A stretch of 64,000 nt of DNA, from contig CAVRZA010000003.1 of the NCBI GenBank assembly GCA_963725665.1, positions 234,894-298,893 of the forward strand, in the 5' to 3' direction. Numbering within the stretch: position 1 is the stretch's first letter; each line of letters opens with the position of its first letter. The translations under genes and the position numbers were made by a program. Under the pieces are notes generated by a model, which was given only the letters and a program-made list of their open reading frames with translations, was not told the DNA's origin and ran no database searches. This stretch comes from an uncultured Actinomycetes bacterium (GTDB taxonomy: Bacteria > Actinomycetota > Thermoleophilia > UBA2241). Of this stretch, positions 11,064-26,586 are shown piece after piece.

Positions 11064-12473
11064 GTGGCGAGAACTACCAAGGCCCTGCCCGAGCGCATGA
11101 CGGTGTTTCATGCCTGGGAGCGCGCGCGGAGAGGTCCCAAGGTCGACGAGAAGACGTGGGATTTCGAGGTCATCCCCAAGACGGCGACTCGTCTGAAGGA
11201 GAAGTACGGGATCAAGATGGACAAGAAGGTCATGATCCCGACCGATCCCGACATCATGAAGCGGCTCTACGAGGCCGGCCTCGAGATGCTCGTCGAGACC
11301 GGCGTGTACATCATCGAGACCGGCCGTGTCGTGAAGTACACCAAGGATGAGGTGCTCTTCACCGTTGCTCAAGCGCCGAAGCACGCCATCATCGGCGAGG
11401 GGGCACTGCACTACCGGCCGCTCGTACCGAGGGCGTGGAACAGCACGACGCCGCCGATCATCCAGGGCGGCCCGACCGGCGCGCCCTGCAGCGAGCAGCA
11501 CTTCCTCGGCATCCACGAGTCGTACGCCAAGGAAGGCATCGTCGACTGCATCGTCGACGGCGTGCTCGAGAAGATCAACGGCTACAACCCGGCCCCGGAG
11601 AGCCCCGCCGAGGTGTGGGCCTCCAAGCAGGAGATGTTCCTGGTCCGCCAGGCCCAGGCCAAGGCCTGTCGCTTAGGGATGGGGTTGTAGGGCGCCGAGA
11701 CGCCTCTCGGGGCGGCGGCCATCGTTGCAGCCGATTTTCCCGGCGGCATGCGGGCCACTGACAACCACGAGGTGTCCCAGCTTAATGAGCTGAAGATGGA
11801 AGCCGGAGGCTGGCAATTCGTCGCTCATTACGCACTAGCTGGCGACATCATCATGGATGAGCAGATGCCCATTTTCGGCGGCTTTGCCGGTGGTCTCGAG
11901 GAGACGACCATCGTCAACGTTGCCACCCACCTCAACGCCTTCGTCATGAACCAGGCGACCTGGCACCTCGACGGACCCGTCCACATGCGCTGGGGCAACA
12001 CCACCGCCAGGGAGGTTCTGGCAGTGGCCGGCCACGGCCAGCGGGCGATCGAGGAGCATTGGCCGGATCTCATGACGGGCAACCAGTACTACCCCACCGC
12101 CGGCCCGGGCACCGTGATGTGCCTGCTAGAGACGGCGGCGCAGGCCATCACCGACACCTGCAGCGGGCGCGAAGTGGTGTCGGGCGTCGCGTCGGCCAAG
12201 GGCGTGAAGCTCGACAAGACCACCGGCCTGGAGGCGCGCTTCATGGGCGAGGTCTGCCACGCTGTGGCCGGCATGCCCCTGGACCAGATCAACGAGATCC
12301 TCGATGCTCTGGTGGCCAAGTACGAGGGTGACTACCTGACGGCGGATGAAGGCAAGACCTACGCCGAGTGCTACGACACCGACAAGGTCGTCCCCAACGA
12401 TGAGTACCTGGCAGTGTACGACGAGGCCGTTGCGATCATGAAGGATCTCGGCGTCAGCTACAAACTGTGGTAA
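11064..12473 (+). CDS. mtmB: Monomethylamine:corrinoid methyltransferase MtmB, pyrrolysine at TAG 11688-11690 (469 aa read-through, Pyl209)
   Basis: ORFs 11064..11690 and 11748..12473 are in frame; the junction reads GMGL-TAG-GAETPL...DNHEVSQLNELK, matching MtmB GMGV-O-GPETSL...DSHEVSQLNELK; QGGPTG and EQMPIFGG also present. Confidence 0.96.
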
Positions 12474-12586
12474 AGGAGCATGTGACTTCAGGCACGGCGA
12501 GGATGCAGGTGTTCTGGTCTGGAACAAGCTCCGCCTCGCCGCGCGGACATCGCCCCGGAGGCCGAGATCGAGGAGGCAAGTGAGCA

Positions 12587-13231
12587 ATGGCAAACGAGGA
12601 GTTGATCAAAGAAGCGCGTGCGGCGCTTCTTACGACCGACAAAGCCAAGGCTGAGGACGTCGCCAAACGAGCCATAGCCGCAGGCATGGATCCGGGCGAT
12701 ATCATGCAGAATGGCTTCGTCGCCGGCATCCGTGAGCTCGGCGAGAAGTTCGACAAGGGCGAGGTCTTCCTGCCCGAGTTGATGCTTGCGGCCGAGGCCA
12801 TGGAAGCCGCCATGGAGATCTGCAACGCGGCCCTGCCCGAGGGCAAGAGCGAGACACGCGGTGTCGTCGTCATCGGCACCGTGGAGGGCGACGTGCACGA
12901 CATCGGCAAGGCTGTCGTGATCGCCTATCTGCGCGCCAACGGGTACGACGTCCATGACGTCGGGAAGGACGTGCCGCCGCAGGACTTCATCGACAAGGCG
13001 GTTGAGGTCAACGCCGACGTCATCGGCGCGAGCGCTCTGCTGACGGCCACGCTGGCCGTGCAGGGCGAGATCGAGGAGTACCTCAAGGAGGCCGGCCTAC
13101 GCGGCAAGTTCAAGACGATCGTGGGCGGTGCCACCTGCACGCAGGGCTGGGCCGACAAGATCGGAGCCGACGCGTACGCGAAGGATGCCAGCGACGCGCT
13201 GCAGAAGATCGGCGAACTCGTCGGACGCTGA
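12587..13231 (+). CDS. mtmC: Cognate corrinoid protein (MtmC-like)
   Basis: GEVFLPEL cap, GTVEGDVHDIGK B12-binding motif, SALLT, VGGA, IGADAY; directly after mtmB. Confidence 0.9.
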   Translation: MANEELIKEARAALLTTDKAKAEDVAKRAIAAGMDPGDIMQNGFVAGIRELGEKFDKGEVFLPELMLAAEAMEAAMEICNAALPEGKSETRGVVVIGTVEGDVHDIGKAVVIAYLRANGYDVHDVGKDVPPQDFIDKAVEVNADVIGASALLTATLAVQGEIEEYLKEAGLRGKFKTIVGGATCTQGWADKIGADAYAKDASDALQKIGELVGR

Positions 13232-13267
13232 AGCGGCGTCGAGCTGCAGTAGGATATCAGTGAACAA

Positions 13268-13307
13268 GGGGGCGCCCCGGCCGACGAGAGTCGGCTGGGG
13301 CGCCCCC
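13268..13307 (+). terminator. GC-rich hairpin after mtmC
   Basis: 18-bp stem with GAGA loop; no U tract. Confidence 0.6.
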
Positions 13308-13363
13308 CCGTATGACAGTCTTCGGACGGATTGCCGGCAAGGTTCGCGCTGAGGAGGGCAGCG

Positions 13364-14590
13364 GTGGCACAGGTCAATGCAGGAGACACAGCCTTCGTCC
13401 TCATCAGCGCCGCCCTCGTGGCGCTGATGACACCGGCTATCGCCTTCTTCTACGGCGGGCTGGTGAGGCGCAAGAACTTCTTGTCGATCATGATGCAGAG
13501 CTTCATCTCGATGGGCATCGTGACGGCCATCTGGGTCGCCGTCGGCTACTCGCTGGTCTTCTCCGGCGATGTCTGGGGCATCATCGGCAACCTCGATTGG
13601 GCCGGCCTACACGGCGTCGGCCAAGCTCCGGGTCCGTGGGCGCCGACCATCCCTGCGCTGGCGCACTTCGACTTCCAGGAGATGATCGCCATCTTCACGC
13701 CGGCTCTGATCACCGGCGCCTTCGCCGATCGGGTGAACTTCAAGAGCTACCTCTGGTTTCTCGTGCTCTGGAGCCTGCTGGCCTACATCCCGCTGGCGCA
13801 CTGGGTGCGTGGCGGTGGTTTCCTCGACCAGTGGGGCGCAGAGGACTTCGCTGGCGGCCTGGTGGTCCACGTGAGCGCCGGGTTCGCTGCACTGGCGTCG
13901 GTGTACGTCGTGGGCAAGCGCAGGTTCTTGCCCGGCGAGCGTACGTTGCCGCACAACATCTCTTTCGTGGCGATCGGCACGGCCCTGCTCTGGCTCGGCT
14001 GGTTCGGCTTCAACGGAGGGAGTGCACTGGCGGCCAACGGAATCGCCGCGCAGGCATTCGTGAACACCGACATCGCGGGCTCGATCGCCATGTGCACCTG
14101 GCTTGCGCTCACGTGGCTCCGCAACGGCAAGCCGAGCCTCGTCGGCGCCCTCACGGGAGCGATCAGCGGACTGGTGTGCATCACCCCTGCGGCCGGGTTC
14201 GTCCCGACCTGGTCGGCATTCGTCTTCGGCGCAGCCGCGGGCGTCGTCTGCTACTACGCGATAGTCGTCAAGCAGAGGATGGAGTGGGACGACGCGCTCG
14301 ACGTCTGGGCGGTCCACGGTGTCGGCGGGATACTGGGCACCCTGCTGCTCGGTGTCTTCGGCTTCGCTGCGGTCAATGCCGCCGGCTCCGATGGGCTGTT
14401 GGCAGGGGACGCGGCCTTCTTCGGGGTGCAGCTCGTCTCCGCTGTGATCGCCGCCGGCTACTCCTTCGCGGTGACGTACCTGATCCTCAGGCTGCTCAAC
14501 CACTTCCAGCCCGTGCGCGTGCCCGACGCCGTGGAGCAGAGGGGCCTCGACGCCGAGATGCACGGCGAGGAGGCCTACCACCTGACTTGA
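13364..14590 (+). CDS. amt: Amt-family ammonium/methylammonium channel
   Basis: FFYGGLVRRKN, DFAGGLVVH, GWFGFNGGS, DDALDVWAVHGVGG, GLDAEMHGEEAY; GAGGAGG RBS before GTG 13364. Confidence 0.95.
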   Translation: MAQVNAGDTAFVLISAALVALMTPAIAFFYGGLVRRKNFLSIMMQSFISMGIVTAIWVAVGYSLVFSGDVWGIIGNLDWAGLHGVGQAPGPWAPTIPALAHFDFQEMIAIFTPALITGAFADRVNFKSYLWFLVLWSLLAYIPLAHWVRGGGFLDQWGAEDFAGGLVVHVSAGFAALASVYVVGKRRFLPGERTLPHNISFVAIGTALLWLGWFGFNGGSALAANGIAAQAFVNTDIAGSIAMCTWLALTWLRNGKPSLVGALTGAISGLVCITPAAGFVPTWSAFVFGAAAGVVCYYAIVVKQRMEWDDALDVWAVHGVGGILGTLLLGVFGFAAVNAAGSDGLLAGDAAFFGVQLVSAVIAAGYSFAVTYLILRLLNHFQPVRVPDAVEQRGLDAEMHGEEAYHLT

Positions 14591-14650
14591 GCTGCCCGAA
14601 GCCGTGTTCCCGCGGTGGAAAGCCGCCCGCGACTCCGCTAGCCTGAGCTC

Positions 14651-15445
14651 GTGGAGAGCGAGCTTCCTACCCTGGGAGTCGAGCTTGTCGGCGATGGACT
14701 CGGCCCGTTCGACGACATCGAGTTCATTGGCAGCGGCAGGTTTGCGGAGACGTACCGCGTTGTGCGTGACGACGACGAGTACGTGCTCAAGGTCTGCCAC
14801 TTCATCCCGCGCATACCGCAGGAGCTCTGGGAACATGAGCTCGAGGCGCTGCGGCGCGTGAGACACCCGAACGTCATGGCATTCCGCGCCGCAGGGCACC
14901 TGCGAGCCCAGGGCAAGACGTACCCCTTCATGGAGTGCGAGTACATCGACGGCCGCGACGTGAGAGGGATGATCGCCGCCGGGCTGCGACCGGAGGATCC
15001 GTCGGCACTGCGGGAGTTCTTCGCAGGCCTCCTGCGCGGCGTGGCGGAGCTCCACGACCTGGGCATCCTGCATCGCGACATCAGGCCGGCCAACGTGGCC
15101 CTGCGGGGCGGCCACTGGCAGAAACCCGTGCTGCTCGACTTCGGCCTGGCTCAGACCTACGTCGTCTCGGCGGCGCAGCAGCGCCTCTCGCTGGGCGAGC
15201 GGCGGCGGGATCTTGTTGCCCTCGCCGAGGTCGTGTACGAGGTCGGGGCGGGACGACCTCCCGTCCACGAACCACGGGCCGCCCGGACCCTCGCCACGCG
15301 GGTGCGGCGGCGTGCTCTGGTCGACCCACGCAGGCTCTCGCCGCTGTTCGCGGACGACGTCGCCGAGGTCGTCGTCCGTCTGTTGTCTCGCGGGCAGTCG
15401 CGCTCGGGGGCCGATGAGGCGTTGCGAGAGCTGGAGGAGTCCTAG
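14651..15445 (+). CDS. Atypical Ser/Thr kinase-like protein
   Basis: GSGRFA Gly loop, VLK, HPNV, HRDIRPAN, DFG; no APE motif. Confidence 0.8.
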   Translation: MESELPTLGVELVGDGLGPFDDIEFIGSGRFAETYRVVRDDDEYVLKVCHFIPRIPQELWEHELEALRRVRHPNVMAFRAAGHLRAQGKTYPFMECEYIDGRDVRGMIAAGLRPEDPSALREFFAGLLRGVAELHDLGILHRDIRPANVALRGGHWQKPVLLDFGLAQTYVVSAAQQRLSLGERRRDLVALAEVVYEVGAGRPPVHEPRAARTLATRVRRRALVDPRRLSPLFADDVAEVVVRLLSRGQSRSGADEALRELEES

Positions 15446-15538
15446 GGACGATCACGCAGCTCCCGGACCTGGCAACGAATCGCCGTCGCGCGCTCAGAAC
15501 GCGGCACTCGGACGGTGCGTGACAGACAGCACAAGCCG

Positions 15539-15567
15539 TTGCAATGCCCCGGGCCATTGTGTACAGT
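15539..15567 (+). promoter_or_regulatory. Sigma70-type promoter of the transporter operon
   Basis: TTGCAA-17 bp-TACAGT with TG extension; inverted repeat CAATG..CATTG (15542-15559) overlaps the spacer. Confidence 0.55.
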
Positions 15568-15818
15568 GCGCGCATCCTCGCACGATACGCCCATCGGGGC
15601 CCCAAAGCCCGCCGTCGAAGGGGGATGGTGTCGTACGGGTCTCTCAGGCTCGATGAGGGGAGGTCGCCAGACGAGAGCTTCCGCACCCAGTGAACGCTGA
15701 GGGCTCGGCAAAAGCTGCCGGCCCCTCACCCGCCTCGCTCTCCCGAAACCGCGCGTCTGTCGCGCCGCCGGAGGAGGTCGGGCGGGCCGACCATTTCGGG
15801 CAAGTGAAAGGGGGACAC

Positions 15819-16232
15819 TTGAGTCGTACCGAAGCCGACCTCGCCGTCGAGCAAGCTGTCGCTGCCGAGGCGAAGAGAGGCACCCACGATCCACGCATCG
15901 AGAAGACGTACCGACGGGACGTGATCACGATCTACACGTTCGTGATCGCCCTGTTGTTCACACTCTGGGCAGTGTTCTTCTTCGTCGTGAATCCCAACGT
16001 CCAGGACAACACCCTGCGCTGGCTCATGATCGGCCTGGGCATATTCGCCTCCGTCTTCAACGCCACGGGGATGATCCAGAACACCCGGCGCCTCAAGCAG
16101 GAGGCGGTACGCTTCTACTCCCAGGACCTGTTCTGGCAGGACCAGAAGAAGCTGCAGAAGGAGTACGCGAAACAAGAGCACGAGATGTACCTGAGGCAGA
16201 AGAACGTGGACAAGGGGGCGACCGATGCCTGA
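15819..16232 (+). CDS. Small two-TM membrane protein
   Basis: Two hydrophobic helices; RBS before TTG 15819; overlaps the next gene. Confidence 0.75.
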   Translation: MSRTEADLAVEQAVAAEAKRGTHDPRIEKTYRRDVITIYTFVIALLFTLWAVFFFVVNPNVQDNTLRWLMIGLGIFASVFNATGMIQNTRRLKQEAVRFYSQDLFWQDQKKLQKEYAKQEHEMYLRQKNVDKGATDA

Positions 16233-16389
16233 ACACGACGACGAGTGGATCCCGTATCAGGGATACCAGGAGCCGAAGCAGCACGTGTTCTGGCAGGTGT
16301 TCGATGTGGTCTTCATCCTGGCCCTCTGCTACGTCTGCCTGCTCGTGCCGATCCTGCTGGCCGGCAAAGTCCTGGTCGGGGGGGACTGA
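16225..16389 (+). CDS. 54-aa single-TM protein (absent from the supplied ORF track)
   Basis: MPEHDDEWIPYQGYQEPKQHVFWQVFDVVFILALCYVCLLVPILLAGKVLVGGD; AGGGGG RBS, GC3-biased codons, overlap with the upstream stop. Confidence 0.75.
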   Translation: MPEHDDEWIPYQGYQEPKQHVFWQVFDVVFILALCYVCLLVPILLAGKVLVGGD

Positions 16390-16416
16390 TCATGGCTCCT
16401 GCGATCATGAGAAGGA

Positions 16417-16701
16417 GTGGGTCAGTCCGCCGTGGATGTCGGCAGATTGTGGTTCTCTGTGCTTGCGACCCTGGGCAGCCTGATGATGCTGGCCATCGTC
16501 GTAGCCCCGGCTCTGGCCGCGGGGAAGGTCCCGACGTGGGAGCTCTCGAAGGAGAAGGCCCCCGAGCTGGACTACACGCTCAGTCTCGGCACGGCCGTCC
16601 TTACCTTCGGGCTCCTGATCGCCTTTTTCGTCATGCTCTTCGTGCTGTCGGAGAGGGAGTTCAAGGGCGTGATCAACGAGCGCTTCGGACCGAAGAAGTG
16701 A
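16417..16701 (+). CDS. Small membrane protein
   Basis: Two hydrophobic segments, ends SEREFKGVINERFGPKK; start codon uncertain. Confidence 0.7.
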   Translation: MGQSAVDVGRLWFSVLATLGSLMMLAIVVAPALAAGKVPTWELSKEKAPELDYTLSLGTAVLTFGLLIAFFVMLFVLSEREFKGVINERFGPKK

Positions 16702-16720
16702 GAAGGGTGGTGTCATCGCT

Positions 16721-16990
16721 GTGAGTATCGAAGAGGTCATGAACTACGTGGCATGGGCGGTGAGCATCGCCATTATCGCGTGGATGGTGATTGACGCCCT
16801 GCGCGTCGAGGTGACCTACGACCGAGACCTGCTCGTCAGCTCGGTAGAAGGCGAGATCGAGAAGGAGATCCTCTCGTCTGACGAGGAAGCCACGCTCAAG
16901 AGGCATGCGTCCGACTGGGCGGCGGAATACACCGAAGTCGAGGCGGAAGCGCGAAAGGCCGAGCAAGCGCCGCCCGGAGGAGGGTCCTGA
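16721..16990 (+). CDS. Small single-TM protein coupled to the APC permease
   Basis: NYVAWAVSIAIIAWMVIDA helix plus acidic tail; TGATG overlap with the permease start. Confidence 0.75.
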   Translation: MSIEEVMNYVAWAVSIAIIAWMVIDALRVEVTYDRDLLVSSVEGEIEKEILSSDEEATLKRHASDWAAEYTEVEAEARKAEQAPPGGGS

Positions 16991-18383
16991 TGGCAGCTGA
17001 AGCGCCTGCGGTCACCGCCGCAAGACCGAAGCGCCTGAGCCTGCTGCGCGTCCTCGGCCCCTGCACATCTGGGGTCTCGGCGTGGGCATCGTGCTCGTGG
17101 GCGAGTTCATGGGTTGGAACTTCACGGTGGCCAAGGGCGGAGTGTTCGGCGCGCTCGTCGCCTGCTGGTTCAGCGGCATCCTCTACTCCTGCGTCGCCAT
17201 GATCGACTCCGAGGTGAGCTCGACGGTGGCCTCGGCCGGTGGCCAGTACGCGCAGGCGAAGCACATCCTCGGCCCCTCGGCCGCCTTCAACCTGGCTCTG
17301 TTCATCATCTTCGAGTACGTGATGCTCGAGGCCGGCGACGCCATCGTGATCGGCGCCATCATGGAGAAGCTCAGCGCGAACTTCAGCGCGACGGCCTGGG
17401 TCATCCTGACCATCGCCATCCTGTCGTTCCTCAACTACCGCGGCGTGACGTTGGCGCTGACCGTCAACTACATCATCACGGCCATCGCCTTCATCACGAT
17501 CCTCCTCCTCCTCTTCGGGAACTGGGGGAACTTCTTCACCCAATACCTATTCACGGCCGATATCGGCGGCAGGAATCCCGAGATGCCGTACGGCTGGCTC
17601 GGCATCCTCGCCGCGCTGCAGTTCGGCATCTGGTATTACCTGGGCATCGAAGGCACCTGCCAGACGGCTGAGGAGTGCCGCTCCGCTCCGCGCGCGCTGC
17701 CGATCGGCACGATGTCTGGGCTCGTCACGCTGCTGATCGCCGCCACCATCACCTGGTACGTCGCTACCGGCCTGGTCGACTGGGTGACGCTCGGATCATC
17801 GGCGTACCCGCTCTACGACGCGGCGCTGAACACGAGTAAGGACTGGCTCATCGTGGCGCTGTTCATCGGCACTGTGTTGAGCTGTCTGGCGTCGGCTAAC
17901 GGCTGCATCAACGACGCCTCGCGGGCCTGGTTCGCCATGGGACGCGACCAGTTCGTGCCGCGCTTCTTCGGCGGCGTGCACCCGCGCTACAAGACGCCGT
18001 ACCGCTCGATCCTGTTTCTGATCCCCATCGCCATGGCCTTCGGGTACACGGGGTTGCTCGACCAGGTGATCACCTTCTCGATCATCTCGGGCTGTTTGAT
18101 ATACGCCGTCATGCCCCTCAACATCATCCGTTTCCGCAGGCTCTATCCGATGGGCTCCATCAGGCGGGGCTACGTCTACCCCTTCCATCCCTGGCCGGCG
18201 TTCGTGCTCGCTCTCTTCGTAGCGCTCACGTTCATCGCCGTCTACTTCGGCTACTGGCGCAACCTGGTCGGGGCCATGGCCTTCTATATCCTCGCCTCGA
18301 TCTGGTTCACCTTCCACCGCTACAGGATGGTGGATCGCTCCAAGCTCTACACCATGCCCTGGCCGCGGCCTAAGGGATACTGA
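16990..18383 (+). CDS. APC-family amine permease (MtmP/ethanolamine-permease-like), 1-nt frameshift near 17062
   Basis: LLRVLGP then HIWGLGVGIVLVGEFMGWN, WYYLGIEG, AEEC, HPRYKTPYR; many TM helices. Confidence 0.88.
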
Positions 18384-18409
18384 GGATCCGGCCGGCAAGG
18401 GAGGGCAGG

Positions 18410-18865
18410 ATGTTCGAGACGATACTAGTAGCAACAGATGGCTCGCACTCGGCGGGGAAGGCCGTCGACTTCGCGGTGGAGCTCGCCAAGAGCCATGGTT
18501 CCAAGCTCGTGATCTGCACCGTCACACGAGAGCGGCTGGCGACGATCGACAGGGACCCCGGCGAGCCCAATCCGCCCGACGTCGACCCGAGAGCATCGCT
18601 GAGTCGCGGTCAGGCCGACCAATCGGCGGAGGTTCTGCGCCGAGGCGAGCAGGCGGCCAAGGCAGCGGGCCTGGGGAACTACGATCTGCGCGAGATCTAC
18701 GGCACGAACACAGGCGCCACCATCGTGAAGGAAGCCGAAGCGATGGGAGCCGACCACATCGTCGTCGGCTCTGTCGGGGAGACCGGCCTCGCCAGGCTGC
18801 TCATGGGTTCCGTGGCGGCGAGCGTGGTGCATCACGCCCACTGTCCGGTGACGGTGGTGCGGTAA
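18410..18865 (+). CDS. Universal stress protein
   Basis: ILVATDGS...LMGSVAASVVHHAHCPVTVVR. Confidence 0.93.
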   Translation: MFETILVATDGSHSAGKAVDFAVELAKSHGSKLVICTVTRERLATIDRDPGEPNPPDVDPRASLSRGQADQSAEVLRRGEQAAKAAGLGNYDLREIYGTNTGATIVKEAEAMGADHIVVGSVGETGLARLLMGSVAASVVHHAHCPVTVVR

Positions 18866-18907
18866 GTGACTGGAGGGCCACAGCCGCAACACGGCGCGCG
18901 GTAGGTC

Positions 18908-19573
18908 ATGGAGTTTGACCTGCTCTGGAAGGGCGCCGTGGTCGCGGCTGTGGCCCTCTTCTTCGTCTGGCGCCTCCTGAGGGTCCAACAAAGCGATCAG
19001 GCGACGAAGGCGCACATGCTCGACGAGCTCCTGCCGGAGGTCGAGCGGGCCGCGTGGACGTGGAGCCCCTGGCATTATCCCCGCCTCGACGGGATGCTTG
19101 ACGGGTATCCCGCTCGCTTCGACCTTCTGTCCGACACCCTTGTGACGCGCTCACTGCCCACGCTCTGGCTACAGCTGCGCTGGGCACTGCCTCACGAGGG
19201 CTGCTTCTGCGTGACCATCGACCCGACCGGCGCCGAGTTCTTCTCCAACGATGCCGACTGCGGTCGCCTTCTGCCGACGCCGAGCTCCTGGGGGGTGAGG
19301 GCGGAGATCCATGCCGACGGCAGCGGGGGCGCGCTCCTGCGCCGCCTGTCCGCCCTCGATCTGAGCTCCTACCCCTCGGTCAAGCAGCTTTCCGTGGTAG
19401 AGGGTGAGCTCAGGCTGACCGTGCGTTGCGCCCGCGGGGAGCTGCAGATCTACCGGGTGATGCGCGCCGCGAAGTTCCCTCCCGACTGCGTTTCCCCAAG
19501 CATCGTGGCGGAGACGTTGTCTTTGGCGCGTGCGGCCCGAGACGTCCTGACGGCAGAACGAGAGGCGGGATGA
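18908..19573 (+). CDS. Hypothetical protein with N-terminal membrane anchor
   Basis: One N-terminal TM helix then a soluble domain; ATGA overlap with the next gene. Confidence 0.7.
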   Translation: MEFDLLWKGAVVAAVALFFVWRLLRVQQSDQATKAHMLDELLPEVERAAWTWSPWHYPRLDGMLDGYPARFDLLSDTLVTRSLPTLWLQLRWALPHEGCFCVTIDPTGAEFFSNDADCGRLLPTPSSWGVRAEIHADGSGGALLRRLSALDLSSYPSVKQLSVVEGELRLTVRCARGELQIYRVMRAAKFPPDCVSPSIVAETLSLARAARDVLTAEREAG

Positions 19574-20199
19574 GCGCCGGCGCATCACGACCGAAGAAGA
19601 AGTCGCAACGACCGGCCAGGCCGGCAGGCGAGATCCGCAAGCCTTACCCCGTGTGGCTCGTCACCACCGCGGCCTTCCTGCTGCCGGGCAGCGGCCAGAT
19701 GCTGAACGGTTTTCCCGTGCGAGGGATCATCATGCAGTTCTTCATGATCGTCCTCGGGTTTGTCACGTACAAGATCAGCAGCCCCGACATCTCGTTCATC
19801 GGCCGGTTCGCCGGCGGCATCTTCGTGTACGTCTTCTCGGTCATCGACGCCAACACCGTGGCGAAGCGCGCCATGGCTGCGTGGGAACGGATGGGTGAGG
19901 GCGGCGGCGGAGCCGGGAGCGGGCCCACGTCGTCCGGTCGGCGCCCCAATAAGGATCGAGAGCCGCAGAAAGGCGCCAAACCGTCGCGGCGCCGCGTCCA
20001 GGGGGAGGGCGAGACGCGGCAACGACCGCCGGTGCGGACCAAGCCAACGAAGCCGACGAACCCGACCAAGCCAACGAAGCCGAAGAACTCGACGAACCAG
20101 ACGAAGCCAACGAGGCCTCCCGGCGAGCCCCCCCTCAAGGGGGGCGGAGGCGTCCGCGTGGCACTCGCTGCGCGCGGGGAGTCAACAGGAGTGAGCTGA
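19570..20199 (+). CDS. Three-TM membrane protein with Pro-Thr-Lys repeat tail
   Basis: LLPGSGQMLNG...RG motif, TM helices, basic (PTK)n tail. Confidence 0.7.
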   Translation: MSAGASRPKKKSQRPARPAGEIRKPYPVWLVTTAAFLLPGSGQMLNGFPVRGIIMQFFMIVLGFVTYKISSPDISFIGRFAGGIFVYVFSVIDANTVAKRAMAAWERMGEGGGGAGSGPTSSGRRPNKDREPQKGAKPSRRRVQGEGETRQRPPVRTKPTKPTNPTKPTKPKNSTNQTKPTRPPGEPPLKGGGGVRVALAARGESTGVS

Positions 20200-20277
20200 G
20201 CGCCGGCCGACGCGTCTGCGGATCCGGCCGGCCTGGGTATACTCTTTTAGTACGGCAACGAGCTTGGGACTTCGGAA

Positions 20278-22130
20278 GTGAATGCAGAGGTGTCACCTCC
20301 GCACGACGCAGGGGACACCTCCGGTAACCCAGATCCCAGGCGGATCGCCCCATTCCTGTCTCACCACCCGCTTCTCGAGGGCCTTAGCCGTGACGATCGC
20401 GAGAGAATGGCCGAGATGGTCGTCGTGCGTTGCGTGCCGGCGGGCGAGTCGGTCCTCGTCGAGGGCGGGCCGCCAGGTACGTATCTCTTCGTCGTCGTGG
20501 AAGGGTCGATGGAAGTCCTGGCCGGGGGCCTTGTCGTCGACGTGCTGACGAGTGGGGAGGTGTTCGGCGCCCCGACCCTGGTCACGGGTCTTGCCCCAGG
20601 GTTCTCGGTTCGCGCGCGCGAAGGCTCGACGTTGTATCTCGTCCCTCGAGAGGCGGCGATCGAGCTGCTCCTTCGCCCTGAGGGGGTCGCATTCGTGGTG
20701 GCGTCCTTGCGAGACCGGCTCGTTCACACCTCGCGGACGTTCAGATCGGTCGCCGACCCGCGGAGCGTTCCCGTTTCTTCTCTCATCCGTCGCGCGCCTG
20801 TCATCTGCCAGGCCGACACGCCCATTCGCGACGTGGCCATGATCATGAGCCAGGAGGTCGTAGCCGCTGTCCTCGTGGAGACCCGCCAGGGTCTCGGCAT
20901 CGTCACCGACGCCGATCTGCGCGACAGAGTACTGGCCGCTGGATTGTCGGCGCATGCTCCGGTCGGCTCGATCACGACCACTCCGGTCCGCACCATCAGC
21001 GCCGAGCGCCTGGCGCCCGAGGCGAGCATCGAGATGATGCAAGCCGGCATCAACCATCTGGTCGTCATCGATGCCGCTGGTGGCGTGCTCGGCATCGTTT
21101 CGGCCGGCAGCCTGATGGCCCCCGATGCGCTGAGCCCCTTCGCTCTGCGCTGGTCGATCCTGGCTGCACGCAGCGTAGACGAGGTCGTCGAGGCGGCCAT
21201 CCGTCTGCCAGAGGTGTTCGTCTCACTCACCGACCAGCACCTAGACGCCCCGACGATCTTGCGCGTGGTCACGCTGGTGGTCGACACGCTTACGCGCCGC
21301 TTGCTCGAACTCGCCGTCCGGCAGCTGGGACGGCCGTCTGTTCCCTACGCTTGGCTTGCTCTCGGCAGCGCCGCGCGCAGCGAGCTCACCCTCGTCTCCG
21401 ACCAGGACAACGCGCTGGCCTATGCCGACTCGGACGACCCCTCGGTCGACGCGTACTTCGAGCGACTGGGAGAGGCGGTTAACGATGGCGTGGCACGCTG
21501 CGGCTTTGCGGCCGATCAGTCGGGAGTGCTGGCTCGAGATCCGCACTGGCGCATGTCCCGGTCCGACTGGGTGCATGTCTTCCAGGAGTGCTACGACGTG
21601 TGGGACTGGGAGCACGCAGCGCGGGCCTGCGTGGCCTTCGACTTCCGCTGTATCGACGGCGATCTGGACATCGTGACCCCTCTGACCGAGGTCGTGCTGA
21701 GGGCTCCCGACCATCCCGCGCTGTTGAACCGGCTCGCCCGTTCGGTGGTCGATACACGTTCGCCCCTCGGCTTCCGCCAGCACTTGCCCGATCGGGTTGA
21801 CATCAAGAGGAGCGCTCTGCTGCCAATCGAGAACATCGCGCGCTACTTCGCGCTTGCGAATCGGATCACCGTGCCGGCGACGTTGGATCGTCTCACCGCC
21901 GTGGAGGAGCTGGCCATTCTCGAGACCGAGATAGTGATCGCCCTGCAGGAGGCCTACCGCGCCATGGCTCACCTCCGGCTGCGCCACCATGCAGACGCCA
22001 TCGAGAGGGGCGACGCGTTGACGACACCATTGACACGACTACGCTACAGCCGTTGGCACGCGTGGAAGTGCACGAGGCACTGCGGCTGATTGCGGCCGCC
22101 CAGAAACGGGTGCCACTCTACGTGACGTGA
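20278..22130 (+). CDS. cNMP-binding/CBS/DUF294 putative nucleotidyltransferase, copy 1 (frameshift near 22010)
   Basis: cNMP domain (GEVFG), CBS pair (GIVTDADLR), WLALGSAARSELTLVSDQDNAL, DIKRSALLPI. Confidence 0.88.
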
Positions 22131-22274
22131 GGTCGAACGGCCCTCGCTGGCGGTCGGTGATGCATCCCTTGTCGCAAGTCCGGGCTCGAGGATGCCCGCG
22201 ATGTGGCGAGGGGTCGACGCCAGGGTAGACTCAAGATCGCGGCGGCTCCGCGCGAGCGCCCTCCAGTAGCGGGA

Positions 22275-24165
22275 GTGAGTCATGGCCACAGAACGGCCAG
22301 CCGAACAGCGCGACGAGCGCATCGCCTTCTGCTCGACGACGTGCGGCGGATAGCGATCTTCCTGTCGCGAGTGCCTCCGTTCAACGGACTCAACCGGCGC
22401 GAGCGCGAGCGGATAGCCGCCTCGGTCGAGAAGTGGGAGCTGGCGCCGGGAAGCGTCCTCCTCGTCGAAGGCGGCCCGCCGGGCACCCGTCTGTTCGTCG
22501 TCTTCGACGGTGTCCTCGAGCTGACGACCAGGGGACAGGTGATCGACGTCGTCACGAGTGGCGGTCAGTGGTGGGTCACCCGAGCTCTCGTCACCGGTCT
22601 CGCGCCCGAGTTGACGGTGCGGGCTCGCGACCAGGTCGTTCTTTACGCGATCCCTCGGACGATCGCCATCGACGTGCTCAGCCGCCCGCAGGGGGTCGCC
22701 TTCGTGACCGGCACTCTGCGCGAGCGGCTCGTGCGCACGGCGCAAATGATCGAATCGGCTTCTGACCAGACGAGCGGCCCGTGTCGTCGCTCATCCGCCG
22801 CCCCCCGTGATCTGCAGCCCCGATACCCCGGTGCGCGAGGCGGCGCGAGATGATGAGCGCCCAAGTCGCAAGCGCCATTCTCGTCGAGACACGCGAGGGT
22901 CTCGGCATCGTCTCCAACGCCGACTTGCGCGACAAGGTCGTCGCCCTCGGCGTCTCTCCCGACACTCCCGTCAGCTCGATCATGACGACGCCTGTGGTGA
23001 CCGTACGCGGCGACCAGCTCGCGACGGAGGCCGGCATCGAGATGATGCGCGCGGGGATCAACCACCTGGTGGTCGTCGACGCGCGCGAACGTGTGCTCGG
23101 AGTCATATCGGCTGCGAGCCTGATGAGTACGGATGCGCCAGCCCGCTGGTCTTGCGCTCGGCTATTACCGCGGCTCACGATGTGGAGGAGGTCGTTGAGG
23201 CGGCGAAGCTCATGCCACAGGTCTTCGTCTCACTCGTCGATGCGCGTCTCGATGCACCGAGCCGTCTCGCGCATCATCACTCTGCAGAGCGACTCGCTAA
23301 CGCAACGTCTTGCTGGAACTCGCCATCGAACGTCACGGTCCGCCGCCTACGCCTTTCGCCTGGCTTGCCCTCGGCAGCGGAGGACGCGGTGAGCTGACGC
23401 TGGCCTCGGACCAGGACAACGCTTTGGCGTACGCGGACTCCGACGACCCGGAGGTCGACTCCTACTTCGAGGGTCTGGCCGCCGACGTCAACGGAGGCTT
23501 GGCTCGCTGCGGGTTCGAGCTCGACGTCTCCGGAGTGCTGGCGAGCGACCACCACTGGCGCATGTCGCGATCGGACTGGGTCAGGGTCTTCAGGGAGTGC
23601 TTTGAGGTCTGGGATCTCGAGCACACGCTGCGAGCCAGCGTTGCCTTTCGATTTTCGCCAGGTCGCCGGTGATCTCGACGTCGTCACTCCGCTCGTGGAG
23701 GTGCTTCTCGATGCGCCAGACCATCCTTCGCTCCTCAACAGGGTCGCGCGGACAGTGACCGACATCCGCTCGCCGCTCGGCTTTCGGCAGCGTCTGACGG
23801 GACCAGTCGATATCAAGAAGAGCGCGCTTCTGCCCATCGAGAACATGGCTCGCTACTTTGCGCTCGCCAACAGGGTGACCGTCTCTGCCACTCTCGACCG
23901 TCTCTCCGCCGTGCAGGAGCTGGGCGGTTTCGGGGCGACGACGGCTGCCGAGCTGCCCGAGGCATACCGGGCGGTGTGGAACCTGCGGCTGCGCCATCAC
24001 GCCAATGCCGTTCGCGCCGGTCGTCGCATCGACGACGCCATCGACTCGACCCAGCTTCGCCCACTGACGTACGCGGAGCTGCAGGAGGCCCTGCGGGTCA
24101 TCGCGTCGGCTCAGAAGCACGTGCCCGAGATCGTAATGCCGAGAGACATGGAGCGGATGGCGTAG
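22275..24165 (+). CDS. cNMP-binding/CBS/DUF294 putative nucleotidyltransferase, copy 2 (several frameshifts; error or pseudogene)
   Basis: Colinear paralog of copy 1 spread over several frames: GIVSNADLR, WLALGSGGRGELTLASDQDNAL, DIKKSALLPI; start uncertain. Confidence 0.8.
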
Positions 24166-24485
24166 CGCGCCCTTGCGAGCGTACGTGGGCCGCAGCTCGC
24201 ATGTGGCGGCGTTTGTGATTCAGGTGACATAATGGCTGCACTGAGTCGCGGACTCCGGTTTCCCGATCCGGGCTGGCGCCGGTCGGTGTCCACCTTGCAG
24301 GGTGGGACGACGCTTAGCACGGCGGCGGGAGGCTCGTTAGGTGAAGGTGCCATCGACACGCCGGCAGAACGGCTCGACGCACTCGAGCTGACCGCGGGCA
24401 CGGCCTCGGTCGGCCGCCGCCCCACCCACCTCCTTAGCGAACCAGTCACCCCGGGCTCTACTTACGCAACGGAGGTGTGACCTAA

Positions 24486-25886
24486 GTGAGCAAGATACTG
24501 ACCCGCATGGGGGACGGCAGCTTCGTCGAGCTGACGCCCGACGAACTTCGTGCAGACATCGTCGCGGCTACCGAAGATGCGGCCGACAAGGGCAAGATCC
24601 CTCCCTTGCAGGACGACGAGATCGACAAGCTCGTCGAGATATTCTCCGCGCCGTGGCGCGTGATCGGGGTCGAGCCTGGTCACGAGGTTCCCCTCACCAA
24701 GGATGAGACGGCGTGCACCCTTGTTTCATCGCAGCTGTCGAGTGGCGCTCACCTGCCGATCAGCCGTGAGGCGGCGGTCGAGATCTTCGAGCGCGTGTTC
24801 GCCTTCGACACCATGGAGCTGGGCTGGATCGACTACTCCTTCAAACCGGCGAAGGCGATGGTCTCGCTCGACCAAGTGTCGATCGAGCGCCTGCTCGCTA
24901 CGACGGTCTTCCCGGTTCTCTACGGCGCGATGCCCAACATGGGCCTCTACTACACGCCGGACGGGCCTTTTACGAACCCCGCCGATCTGCTCGGCATGAT
25001 GAAGATCGCCGAGGCGCGCGAAGAAGAGATGAAGGCCGCCGAGATGTGCATGGAAGACATGATCTACATGTGCAAGCGCTTCGATGAGATCGGCGCCGAC
25101 GGCATCGACTTCGATACGACCGCATCGGCCGGCGACGCCGACTTCTGGGCGACGCTGAAGACCGTCGAAGAGCTCAAGAAGACGACCAAGCTGGGCATCG
25201 AGGTCGGCATGTCCGGCGAGTTCATCCTCGGCATGCACGGCGAGGTCGAGTACAACGGCAAGAAGCTCGCCGGCATGTTCCCGCACCAGCAGCTCAAGGT
25301 CGTGGAGGAGGCCGGCGCCGACATCTTCGGCCCGGTCGTCAACACCAAGACCAACAAGTCGGCGCCGTGGAACGTCGCTCGCGCCGTGACCTTCGTGAAG
25401 GAAGTCTGCAAGCAGGCCAAGATCCCGATCCACGCCAACGTGGGTATGGGCGTGGGCGGCACACCCATGTTCGAGACACCGCCGGTCGACGCCCTTAGTC
25501 GAGCCAGCGTGGCGATGGTCGAGATCGCCAAGGTCGACGGGTTGTAGGTTGGCGTGGGCGATCCCTTCGGGATGTCCGTAACTCACGCGATTGCCTCCGG
25601 CATGGGTGGCATTCGTACCGCTGGAGATCTGGTGGCGCGGATGCAGCTCAACTACCGGATGAGGCTCCCCGAGGCGAAGAAGTACGTCGCCGACAAGCTT
25701 CACGTGAGCACCTTCGACCTGTCGGATTCGACCGTCATGCGCAACCTGCGCGAGGAGCTCGATATCGGCTGCGTCGAAGCCATCCCCGGCCTCGCCAAGG
25801 GGCTGGCGGCGAAGGCTCGCATCGCCGATCTTCTCGATATCAAGATCGAGTGCGTCGAGAAGCTCAAAGCGAAGATGCCGGCCTGA
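24486..25886 (+). CDS. mtbB: Dimethylamine:corrinoid methyltransferase MtbB, pyrrolysine at TAG 25545-25547 (466 aa read-through, Pyl354)
   Basis: TRMGDG N-terminus, [11 protein letters not shown]; junction [22 protein letters not shown]...AGDLVARMQ matches MtbB VDGI-O-IGVGDPLGM; the two halves are in frame. Confidence 0.96.
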
Positions 25887-25941
25887 CGCGCAAGGCGAGA
25901 GCCCCAGGGTTGACGCAATCCGATTGTTGGAGGTCACAGGC

Positions 25942-26586
25942 ATGGCAAACGAAGAGTTCTTCGCCGAGGCAAACGCGGCGATCAAGGCGTGCGACAAGGA
26001 GAAAGCCATCGCTGCCGCCAAGCGCGGGCTGGCGGCGGGCATCCCGCCCGACGAGATGCTGAAGAAGGGCTTCGTCGTCGGCATCTCTGAGATGGGCGAC
26101 CTTTTCGAGCGCGGCGAGGTTTTCCTTCCGGAGCTCGTCCTTGCGGCCGACGCCATGATGGGCGCCGCCGAGGTGTGCAACGCGGCGCTGCCCGAGGGCA
26201 AAGGCGAGAAGAAGGGCACCGTAGTCATCGGGACCGTTCAGGGAGACGTGCACGACATCGGCAAGACGATCGTCGTCGCGTTCCTGCGCGCGAACGGTTA
26301 CGACGTTCACGACCTCGGCCGCGACGTCGCGGGCGCCAAGTTCATCGACAAGGCCGCCGAGGTCAACGCGGACGTCGTCGGCATGAGCGCTCTCCTGACG
26401 ACCACCATGCGCGAGCAGATCAGGGTGCTCGATGCAATGAAGACGGCCGGCGTGCGCGACAAGTACAAGGTCATCGTCGGCGGCGGCGCATCGACCCAGA
26501 AATGGGCCGACAAGATCGGCGCCGATGCTTACGCGGAGGACGCCAACGACGGCGTGAAGAAGATCAACGAGCTCACCGGCAACTGA
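25942..26586 (+). CDS. mtbC: Cognate corrinoid protein (MtbC-like)
   Basis: GTVQGDVHDIGK, SALLTTTM, IGADAYAEDA; follows mtbB; close paralog of 12587..13231. Confidence 0.9.
   Translation: MANEEFFAEANAAIKACDKEKAIAAAKRGLAAGIPPDEMLKKGFVVGISEMGDLFERGEVFLPELVLAADAMMGAAEVCNAALPEGKGEKKGTVVIGTVQGDVHDIGKTIVVAFLRANGYDVHDLGRDVAGAKFIDKAAEVNADVVGMSALLTTTMREQIRVLDAMKTAGVRDKYKVIVGGGASTQKWADKIGADAYAEDANDGVKKINELTGN

Follow-up and report, generated by a model that had tools for sequence, protein, structure and literature searches.

Synonymous codon context of the pyrrolysine UAG codon in methylamine methyltransferase genes of a Thermoleophilia-type bacterium

Pyrrolysine sites in the window and in the source genome

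The 64-kb stretch of DNA analysed here (the window) carries on its plus strand two genes for pyrrolysine (Pyl)-dependent methyltransferases: mtmB for monomethylamine (11064..12473; PF05369, E 3e-190, residues 12-463) and mtbB for dimethylamine (24486..25886; PF09505, E 1e-199; TIGR02368, E 2.3e-168). When TAG is taken as a sense codon, the open reading frames (ORFs) have 469 codons (mtmB) and 466 codons (mtbB), and each contains a single in-frame TAG at the conserved Pyl position (codon 209 in mtmB, codon 354 in mtbB) with coding sequence on both sides. The full-length Pfam matches span the TAG, and in the alignments of 108 mtbB and of 78 mtmB genes the TAG falls into one column. In both genes of the window the TAG is embedded in the same 10-mer, GGGTTGTAGG, which is read as GGG-TTG-TAG-G. 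In mtmB it is located at 11682..11691 (GGG 11682-11684, TTG 11685-11687, TAG 11688-11690, and G at +4, 11691) and in mtbB at 25539..25548 (GGG 25539-25541, TTG 25542-25544, TAG 25545-25547, G 25548). Codons are numbered from the TAG in the following, TTG being the codon at −1 and GGG that at −2.

There are exactly two copies of GGGTTGTAGG in the window, both on the plus strand and both at Pyl codons. The number expected from dinucleotide-preserving shuffles is 0.03, and at least 2 copies were found in none of 100 shuffles. From the two sites it had been predicted that mtmB and mtbB, although without evident similarity, have converged on a cis context made of minority codons that separates Pyl-TAG from stop-TAG. 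The observations behind this prediction were correct. MtmB and MtbB share no significant similarity (best BLASTP E 0.66); TTG accounts for only 1 of the 33 Leu codons in mtmB, namely the one just 5′ of the Pyl-TAG, and for 2 of 37 in mtbB; and of the Gly codons, 6 of 43 are GGG in mtmB and 6 of 38 in mtbB. As will be shown, the context is a selected local context, not a switch between Pyl-TAG and stop-TAG.

The source genome, that of a soil actinobacterium, is of the Thermoleophilia type (assembly of 3.73 Mb in 12 contigs, 68.4% GC), and the nearest named mtbB loci among the best 80 of 505 relatives (86–90% identity) are titled Thermoleophilia metagenome-assembled genomes (MAGs). A tRNA-Pyl (cta) with the anticodon CUA is predicted by ARAGORN on contig C6 (C6:343702-343774, minus strand). 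The genes pylB (TIGR03910, E 1.3e-134), pylC (TIGR03909, E 3e-101) and pylD (TIGR03911, E 1.6e-62) all adjoin this pylT, and the C-terminal catalytic domain of PylS (pylSc; TIGR02367, E 4.4e-94) was found elsewhere on the same contig. The genome also encodes release factor 1 (RF1) (489.9 bits at a cut-off of 423) and all five tRNA-Leu species, including those with the anticodons CAA and UAA. In a crude gene set of 2518 ORFs, defined by a length of at least 100 codons and a G+C content at third codon positions (GC3) of at least 0.80, TAG is the stop codon of 969 (38%), TGA of 1412 and TAA of 137. UAG thus serves as a much-used stop in an organism in which it also encodes Pyl, and the amber codon of this genome, with 38% TAG stops beside tRNA-Pyl, PylS, PylBCD and RF1, is strongly ambiguous. 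TAG is found at the Pyl position in 14 genes (mtmB 1, mtbB 8, mttB 5). There are also several MtmB-family and about 25 MttB-family paralogues without Pyl, and the latter together with the mtbB genes amount to a large expansion of methylamine/quaternary-amine methyltransferases. It should be noted that Actinobacteriota MAGs which express Pyl-type mttB and mtbB are already on record (PMC10805028).

Synonymous codon choice beside the pyrrolysine codon

A considerable part of the 10-mer is dictated by the protein. In all three families (MtmB, MtbB and MttB) the residue at −2 is Gly and that at −1 is hydrophobic or small, and the +1 codon begins with G. From the conserved pattern Gly-Leu-Pyl-Gly/Val it follows that GG-, -T-, TAG and the last G come with the protein. 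About 7 of the 10 bases are thus fixed by the encoded residues and the TAG, and the free choices are the third base of the Gly codon, TTR versus CTN for Leu, and the third base of the Leu codon. To speak of convergence on a cis context is only partly apt, as Gly at −2 and the hydrophobic or small residue at −1 are shared by all three families at the protein level.

At the 14 Pyl sites of the source genome Leu at −1 is always encoded by TTG (10/10: mtmB 1, mtbB 7, mttB 2). The remaining −1 codons are GCG (3) and TAC (1), and the base at +4 is G in 14/14. Pyl genes of the lineage without the context had been named as evidence against the prediction, and these four GCG and TAC sites lack TTG; in other lineages CTY, GTY, TCG, ACC and GGA are found at −1. 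Among the 92,431 Leu codons of the crude gene set TTG makes up 5.55% and TTA 0.2%. If the three families are taken as independent, the chance of TTG in all of them is by simple arithmetic about 0.0555 cubed, or about 2 in 10,000. A general codon-pair preference is ruled out, since it would predict the opposite of what is seen at the Pyl sites: before codons starting with TA, TTG is depleted (51/1916 Leu codons, 2.7%) and CTC is dominant. Avoidance of CTAG is ruled out likewise: CTC-TAG ends 39 ordinary ORFs, and GTC-TAG is present at 16 archaeal-type mtmB Pyl sites. A universal purine just before TAG is ruled out by the cases with GTC/GTT, TAC, ACC and CTY.

For mtbB, 108 distinct genes were compared, which come from the source genome, from 22 of the 24 genomes sampled in its family, from one further genome of the class and from relatives on genome contigs (best 80 of 505). 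The relatives are titled Thermoleophilia, other Actinomycetota, Desulfobacterales/Deltaproteobacteria, Firmicutes, Chloroflexota, the archaeon Hecatella and Methanosarcinaceae. Overall, Leu at −1 is encoded by TTG or TTA in 96/96 genes, whereas the share of these codons in the other conserved Leu columns is 0–40%. In the 83 genes with a GC3 of at least 0.75 the figure is 78/78 (TTG 62, TTA 16) versus 0–12% in 16 other Leu columns, the five non-Leu codons at −1 being TAC for Tyr. In the 25 genes of lower GC3, with loci titled Desulfobacterales, Firmicutes, Chloroflexota and Hecatella, it is 18/18 versus 0–40% in 25 other Leu columns, the seven Methanosarcinaceae genes of this group having Ile encoded by ATA. 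Scored by log-likelihood relative to the usage of codons for each amino acid within these genes, the −1 column comes out first of the 182 conserved columns, as the strongest synonymous outlier. On a FastTree phylogeny of the 108 MtbB sequences the other Leu columns have undergone 13–41 codon changes, with 3–12 T/C switches at the first base in all but one column. By comparison, the −1 column has undergone only six changes, all between TTG and TTA, and its first base has never changed.

The mtmB set, drawn from the best 80 of 145 relatives in metagenomes and from three genes of genomes, comprises 78 usable genes. Its 18 GC3-rich genes have TTG or TTA at −1 in 18/18 versus 0–24% in 18 other Leu columns, which makes this column the first of 248. 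In the 24 mtmB genes with Ile at −1 the codon is ATA in 24/24 versus 0–48% in 21 other Ile columns (first of 326 columns). Among 30 mttB genes of the Thermoleophilia family, Leu at −1 is TTG in 11/11, the highest share of 54 Leu columns. For Methanosarcinia one mtbB gene per genome was taken (30 genes from 61 genomes searched); Ile at −1 is encoded by ATA in 28 of them and by ATT in 2, the median share of ATA across 23 Ile columns being 10%. Since ATA is used at −1 in 28/30 mtbB and 24/24 mtmB genes although it is a minority Ile codon, the constraint at −1 is present also in the classical Pyl-containing archaea.

Paralogues in which Pyl is replaced provide a control. In 19 MtmB paralogues without Pyl from the source genome and relatives, where Ile, Tyr, Val, Ser or Gln stands in place of the Pyl residue, the codon at the homologous −1 position is ATC in 13, CTG, CTC, ATA, GTG and ATT in one each, and another codon in one. 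In the MttB paralogues without Pyl of the source genome, Leu at this position is found four times and is encoded by CTC (3) and CTG (1), never by TTG, whereas the two Pyl-type mttB with Leu at −1 use TTG. Full-length MtmB paralogues without Pyl are frequent in this bacterial family (e.g., C11:266044-267399 and C4:197079-198440). Judged from these comparisons of sequences, the synonymous constraint at −1 is specific to the site and linked with the TAG in three families that have no detectable similarity. The proposal that a synonymous context is selected is thereby borne out beyond the two sites from which it was made: TTG or TTA encodes Leu at every Leu-type Pyl site examined in the source genome and its family.

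The codon at −2 is also biased. In mtbB it is GGG in 58/83 genes (70%), compared with 0–41% in the 28 remaining Gly columns and about 17% as background, and the column ranks sixth of 182. It is the most GGG-rich of the Gly columns, yet GGG is not fixed there. In GC-rich mtmB genes GGG is found at −2 in 16/18, and the column ranks fourth of 248. GGG is thus indeed an enriched part of the context, as had been supposed, but not an invariant one. At +1 of mtbB, Val is encoded by GTG in 72/80 versus a background of 44%. In mttB two subfamilies have to be distinguished. That with Leu at −1 has mostly GGG-TTG; that with Ala has GCG in 16/18, nearly always after the rare GGT. GGC is found at −2 of mttB in only 2/30 although it makes up 62% of the Gly codons in these genes. 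Conservation of flanking bases beyond what the protein needs, which is to be expected of a recoding enhancer, is therefore present: the −1 codon is the top outlier in mtbB and mtmB, and −2 and +1 are biased. GGG-TTG-TAG-G is thus not an accident of two sites but the commonest form of a context under selection.

Could the 10-mer nevertheless be without function? Its identity in the two genes would then result from conservation of the protein and from inherited codons that have yet to drift to GC-rich synonyms. The large share of bases set by the residues and the TAG agrees with this, as does the relatedness of the sequences within each family, and TTG or TTA could plausibly have arisen from neighbouring codons (ATA, TCG) by single changes. 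However, synonymous sites nearby are free to vary: on the MtbB tree the Gly column at −2 has undergone 33 third-base changes and the other Leu columns have changed many times, as described above, whereas the first base of the −1 codon has not changed at all. Moreover, the same codon choice is made in three families without detectable similarity and is absent from the paralogues without Pyl. By these internal controls an absence of function is strongly disfavoured and must be considered very improbable.

The explanation that we prefer, and to which we give about an even chance, is that the context is under selection because it tunes the decoding of UAG from the P site. The −1 codon would sit in the ribosomal P site while UAG occupies the A site, and purifying selection would act on the synonymous positions of the −1 codon and, more weakly, on the third base of the −2 codon. 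In these bacteria the codon for Leu at −1 would then have to be UUG or UUA, with a preference for GGG before it; the Ala subfamily of mttB would favour GGT-GCG, and in Methanosarcinia Ile at −1 would be encoded by AUA.

Rare codons could also act by their rarity. TTG/TTA and ATA would then be kept as slowly decoded codons and the ribosome would arrive late at the UAG, which might matter, e.g., for ribosome spacing or for refolding of the downstream RNA. Indeed, TTG and TTA are among the rarest Leu codons of the source genome, ATA is a minority Ile codon in the archaeal genes, and in mtbB other rare codons (GGA, GAT, AGG) cluster 26–39 codons downstream of the TAG. In the mtbB genes of lower GC3, however, TTG/TTA reach up to 40% in other Leu columns and yet are used at −1 in 18/18, and GCG, which is favoured at −1 in Ala-type mttB, is a common codon (38%). 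Because the rule holds where TTG/TTA are common, and because GCG is a common codon, a pure pause fits less well. A pause at −1 would, in addition, precede the entry of UAG into the A site and should leave the competition there unchanged. Altogether, we regard selection for a pause as unlikely.

RNA structure around and downstream of the pyrrolysine codon

In the three families no conserved or unusually stable local RNA structure was found over the TAG or the −1 codon. Applied to the region from −30 to +135 of mtbB, mttB and mtmB, RNAalifold pairs no bases within about 60 nt of the TAG except for a 3-bp stem in mtbB, and local windows of 36 nt fold no better than their shuffles (z +0.22 and +1.30). 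A stem-loop a few bases 3′ of the UAG, as in the pyrrolysine insertion sequence (PYLIS), is thus not seen in mtbB, mttB or mtmB.

Further downstream the situation is different in two of the families. In 24 mtbB genes RNAalifold predicts a hairpin of 7 bp with a 4-nt loop starting with A-G, which in the mtbB of the window is located at 25618..25635 on the plus strand, 73–90 nt 3′ of the TAG. In 94% of the alignment cells the bases are paired, and two pairs covary, a covariation reached in 0/500 shuffles; the minimum free energy is −13 kcal/mol (z −2.35). Within this hairpin, Gly at +26 is encoded by GGA in 101/108 genes versus a background of 6% in the GC3-rich genes, and the seven exceptions are the Methanosarcinaceae. 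This GGA is the second strongest synonymous constraint in mtbB, and GAT is also enriched in the hairpin. A retrieval bias, GGA being located inside the peptide pattern used for the search, is excluded, as the genes retrieved with a hidden Markov model (HMM) have GGA in 34/34. In the separate sample of Methanosarcinia mtbB the Gly codon at +26 varies (GGT, GGA, GGG, GGC). The mttB genes of Thermoleophilia have a predicted hairpin of 6 bp, also with a 4-nt loop starting with A-G, at +68 to +83 from the TAG, a distance resembling that in mtbB. It contains GCA in 29/29 versus a background of 6%, and one of its pairs is UA in 22 and CG in 5 genes, three misaligned rows being omitted from the pair counts. 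Also in mttB, TTG is present at +23 in 21/30, and a change from Asn to Ser accompanies CTG in several genes. In mtmB, the same analysis revealed no convincing hairpin downstream.

These findings bear on the possibility that the bases at −2 and −1 are kept as part of an RNA-level element, be it a structure, a pairing over a long range or a site to which a protein or RNA binds, which perhaps acts together with the hairpins 68–90 nt downstream in the manner of a PYLIS. It is in favour of such an element that in mtbB no synonymous constraints are stronger than those on the −1 codon and on the GGA in the loop of the hairpin supported by covariation, and that a comparable hairpin is found at about this distance in mttB. 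Against it speak the lack of predicted pairing around the TAG in all three families, the observation that mtmB obeys the rule at −1 without a convincing hairpin, and the finding that Methanosarcinia keep ATA but not the GGA of the hairpin. The first base at −1 never varies in bacteria and so offers no covariation. We consider an element of this kind quite improbable.

A combination of a P-site codon effect with the hairpins is conceivable, although somewhat doubtful. The cis determinants of Pyl insertion would then be the codon rule (UUG/UUA in bacteria, AUA in Methanosarcinia, ideally after GGG) and, in mtbB and mttB, the hairpins as a PYLIS-like enhancer. If true, codon rule and hairpins would explain how 14 Pyl enzymes are made efficiently in a genome in which 38% of the genes end with TAG.

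Pyrrolysine UAG, stop UAG and related context effects

If the context is effective from the P site, as we prefer to assume, then the −1 codon or the tRNA bound to it would shift the competition for UAG in the A site toward Pyl-tRNA, and more full-length methyltransferase would be made per transcript. The competitor is present in the source genome, which encodes RF1 and uses TAG at 969 of the 2518 crude ORF ends. UUG, UUA and AUA have in common that they are A/U-rich and end with a purine. They are read by tRNAs with specially modified wobble bases, and in E. coli the kind of tRNA in the P site affects RF1. From the codon choice we infer that the context has an effect on decoding or read-through, and it most likely does so by tuning Pyl-tRNA against the release factor. 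It would be a quantitative enhancer that is neither necessary nor sufficient for Pyl insertion.

Several findings, both at Pyl sites and at ordinary stops, weigh against a role of the context in decoding. In mtmB, Leu at −1 is encoded by CTC or CTT in 4/26 genes, which are located on contigs of 47–59% GC. Val-type mtmB genes have GTC or GTT in 23/23, and their −1 column is no outlier among the Val columns; some further mtmB genes have Phe (TTC) or Met (ATG). Elsewhere mttB has TCG (Methanolobus) or ACC or ACA (Methanococcoides, Thermincola) at −1, and in a Desulfobacterales genome it has GGA (6), GGG (1) and GGC (1). The ATT in 2 of the 30 Methanosarcinia mtbB genes also belongs here. It should further be considered that the counts overstate independence because the sequences are related, and that for Methanosarcina and E. 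coli the work described in PMC8211752 and PMC12626013 speaks for no required cis element.

At ordinary stops, the proportion of TTG among Leu-ending ORFs is 6/78 before TAG (7.7% versus 5.55% genome-wide) and 8/83 before TGA, and several of the six TTG-TAG stops are followed by G. The original observation that TTG does not precede terminal TAGs thus applies to the window, where it is found in 0 of 13 other TAG-terminated ORFs of the crude gene set, but not to the genome. In all, 16 crude ORFs end with TTG-TAG, ten of which are N-terminal parts of Pyl genes. A clear ordinary stop is the in-frame TTG-TAG-G at the junction of fumarase alpha and beta (C1:85850-87850). That the context separates Pyl-TAG from stop-TAG is therefore not supported: TTG-TAG-G is found at the end of ordinary genes about as often as expected from background, and this together with the exceptions at −1 (CTY, GTY and others) shows that the context is not a Pyl/stop switch.

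The fumarase junction deserves a remark of its own. The alpha and beta parts of this class I fumarase are in the same frame, and the gap between them consists of TTG-TAG-G and five codons with a purine run resembling a ribosome-binding site and an ATG. Read-through of the TAG would yield a fused enzyme. The two TTG-TAG "stops" with long in-frame extensions were rejected as Pyl genes, one being this junction and the other, which has no family match, probably not being a gene. On both strands of the genome there are 19 copies of the 10-mer, where about 7.6 are expected from base composition by arithmetic, and 6 of them are at Pyl codons. It had been suggested that further in-frame copies might reveal new Pyl proteins. 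A scan yielded none among the 13 other copies, which are antisense to genes or non-coding and have short in-frame ORFs (one checked by ORF listing).

How does the context compare with known systems? The only cis element proposed for Pyl is PYLIS, a 3′ stem-loop in mtmB1 of Methanosarcina that is reported to be enhancing but dispensable (PMC3639795, PMC8211752). PYLIS and the present context are both features of the mRNA of Pyl genes proposed to raise the decoding of UAG as Pyl. PYLIS, however, is a stem-loop 3′ of the UAG, whereas the present feature lies one to two codons 5′ of it, has no predicted structure, and is found in all three methyltransferase families, mainly of bacteria. According to reviews and recent papers, neither a specific context nor a cue of broad conservation is known for Pyl (PMC8211752, PMC12626013, PMC13663744). 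A rule for the −1 codon of Pyl sites is not described in the full texts searched, which did not cover supplements and possible older tables of flanking codons.

The closest relatives are stop-codon context effects. How release factor and suppressor tRNA compete is known to depend on the bases beside the stop codon: in prokaryotes amber suppression is boosted by purines at +4, and in yeast upstream determinants are known (PMC8216290). G is at +4 in all 14 Pyl sites of the source genome. The described effects differ in that they come from reporters or from near-cognate read-through, whereas the −1 choice is natural, conserved and tied to Pyl; neither UUG/UUA nor AUA is among the described contexts that were found. 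Viewed on the level of sequence, our finding belongs with the stop-codon context effects, with the difference that it is evolutionarily conserved and linked to Pyl.

Two other systems are less similar. In Streptomyces the rare codon TTA and its dedicated tRNA-Leu(UAA), encoded by bldA, form a translational control device. The likeness is that TTA and TTG are rare and stand at special positions in a GC-rich actinobacterial lineage, and that tRNA-Leu(UAA) and tRNA-Leu(CAA) are encoded in the source genome; the difference is that there is no sign of tRNA regulation and that the rule holds also in bacteria of lower GC content, in which these codons are common. The bacterial selenocysteine insertion sequence (SECIS) is an obligatory hairpin to which a dedicated elongation factor binds. 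With SECIS the present context shares that a stop codon is recoded by information in the mRNA beside it. Nothing comparable to the SECIS hairpin was found at the Pyl sites, however, and the context is neither necessary nor sufficient.

The question addressed by the TAG-linked choice of the −1 codon is how cells that use UAG both as a stop and for Pyl obtain enough full-length enzyme. The source organism is a sharp case, having RF1, TAG at more than a third of its crude ORF ends and 14 Pyl genes. The choice recurs across three gene families, in archaea as well as in bacteria, and the question becomes testable by synonymous change. If effective, the context would be a ready, favourable setting in genetic code expansion when amber codons are suppressed with PylRS/tRNAPyl, and it could improve the prediction of Pyl genes in metagenomes.

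Some observations on the source genome and the window may be added. Of the eight Pyl-type mtbB genes, five are clustered within 20 kb (C2:493945-513908), two of them directly adjacent. One mtbB copy (C2:503975-505331) and one MtmB-family gene (C4:222297-223123) were split across adjacent frames in the family search, which points to errors of single bases in the assembly and not to biology. A tRNA-Sec (tca) is predicted at C11:550041-550138, and this genome therefore probably recodes UGA as selenocysteine besides UAG as pyrrolysine. In the window, both methyltransferase genes are followed on the plus strand by a gene for a corrinoid (B12-binding) protein, located downstream of mtmB at 12587..13231 (PF02310, E 5.1e-24; PF02607, E 7.3e-20) and downstream of mtbB at 25924..26586 (PF02310, E 5.5e-25; PF02607, E 5.3e-14).

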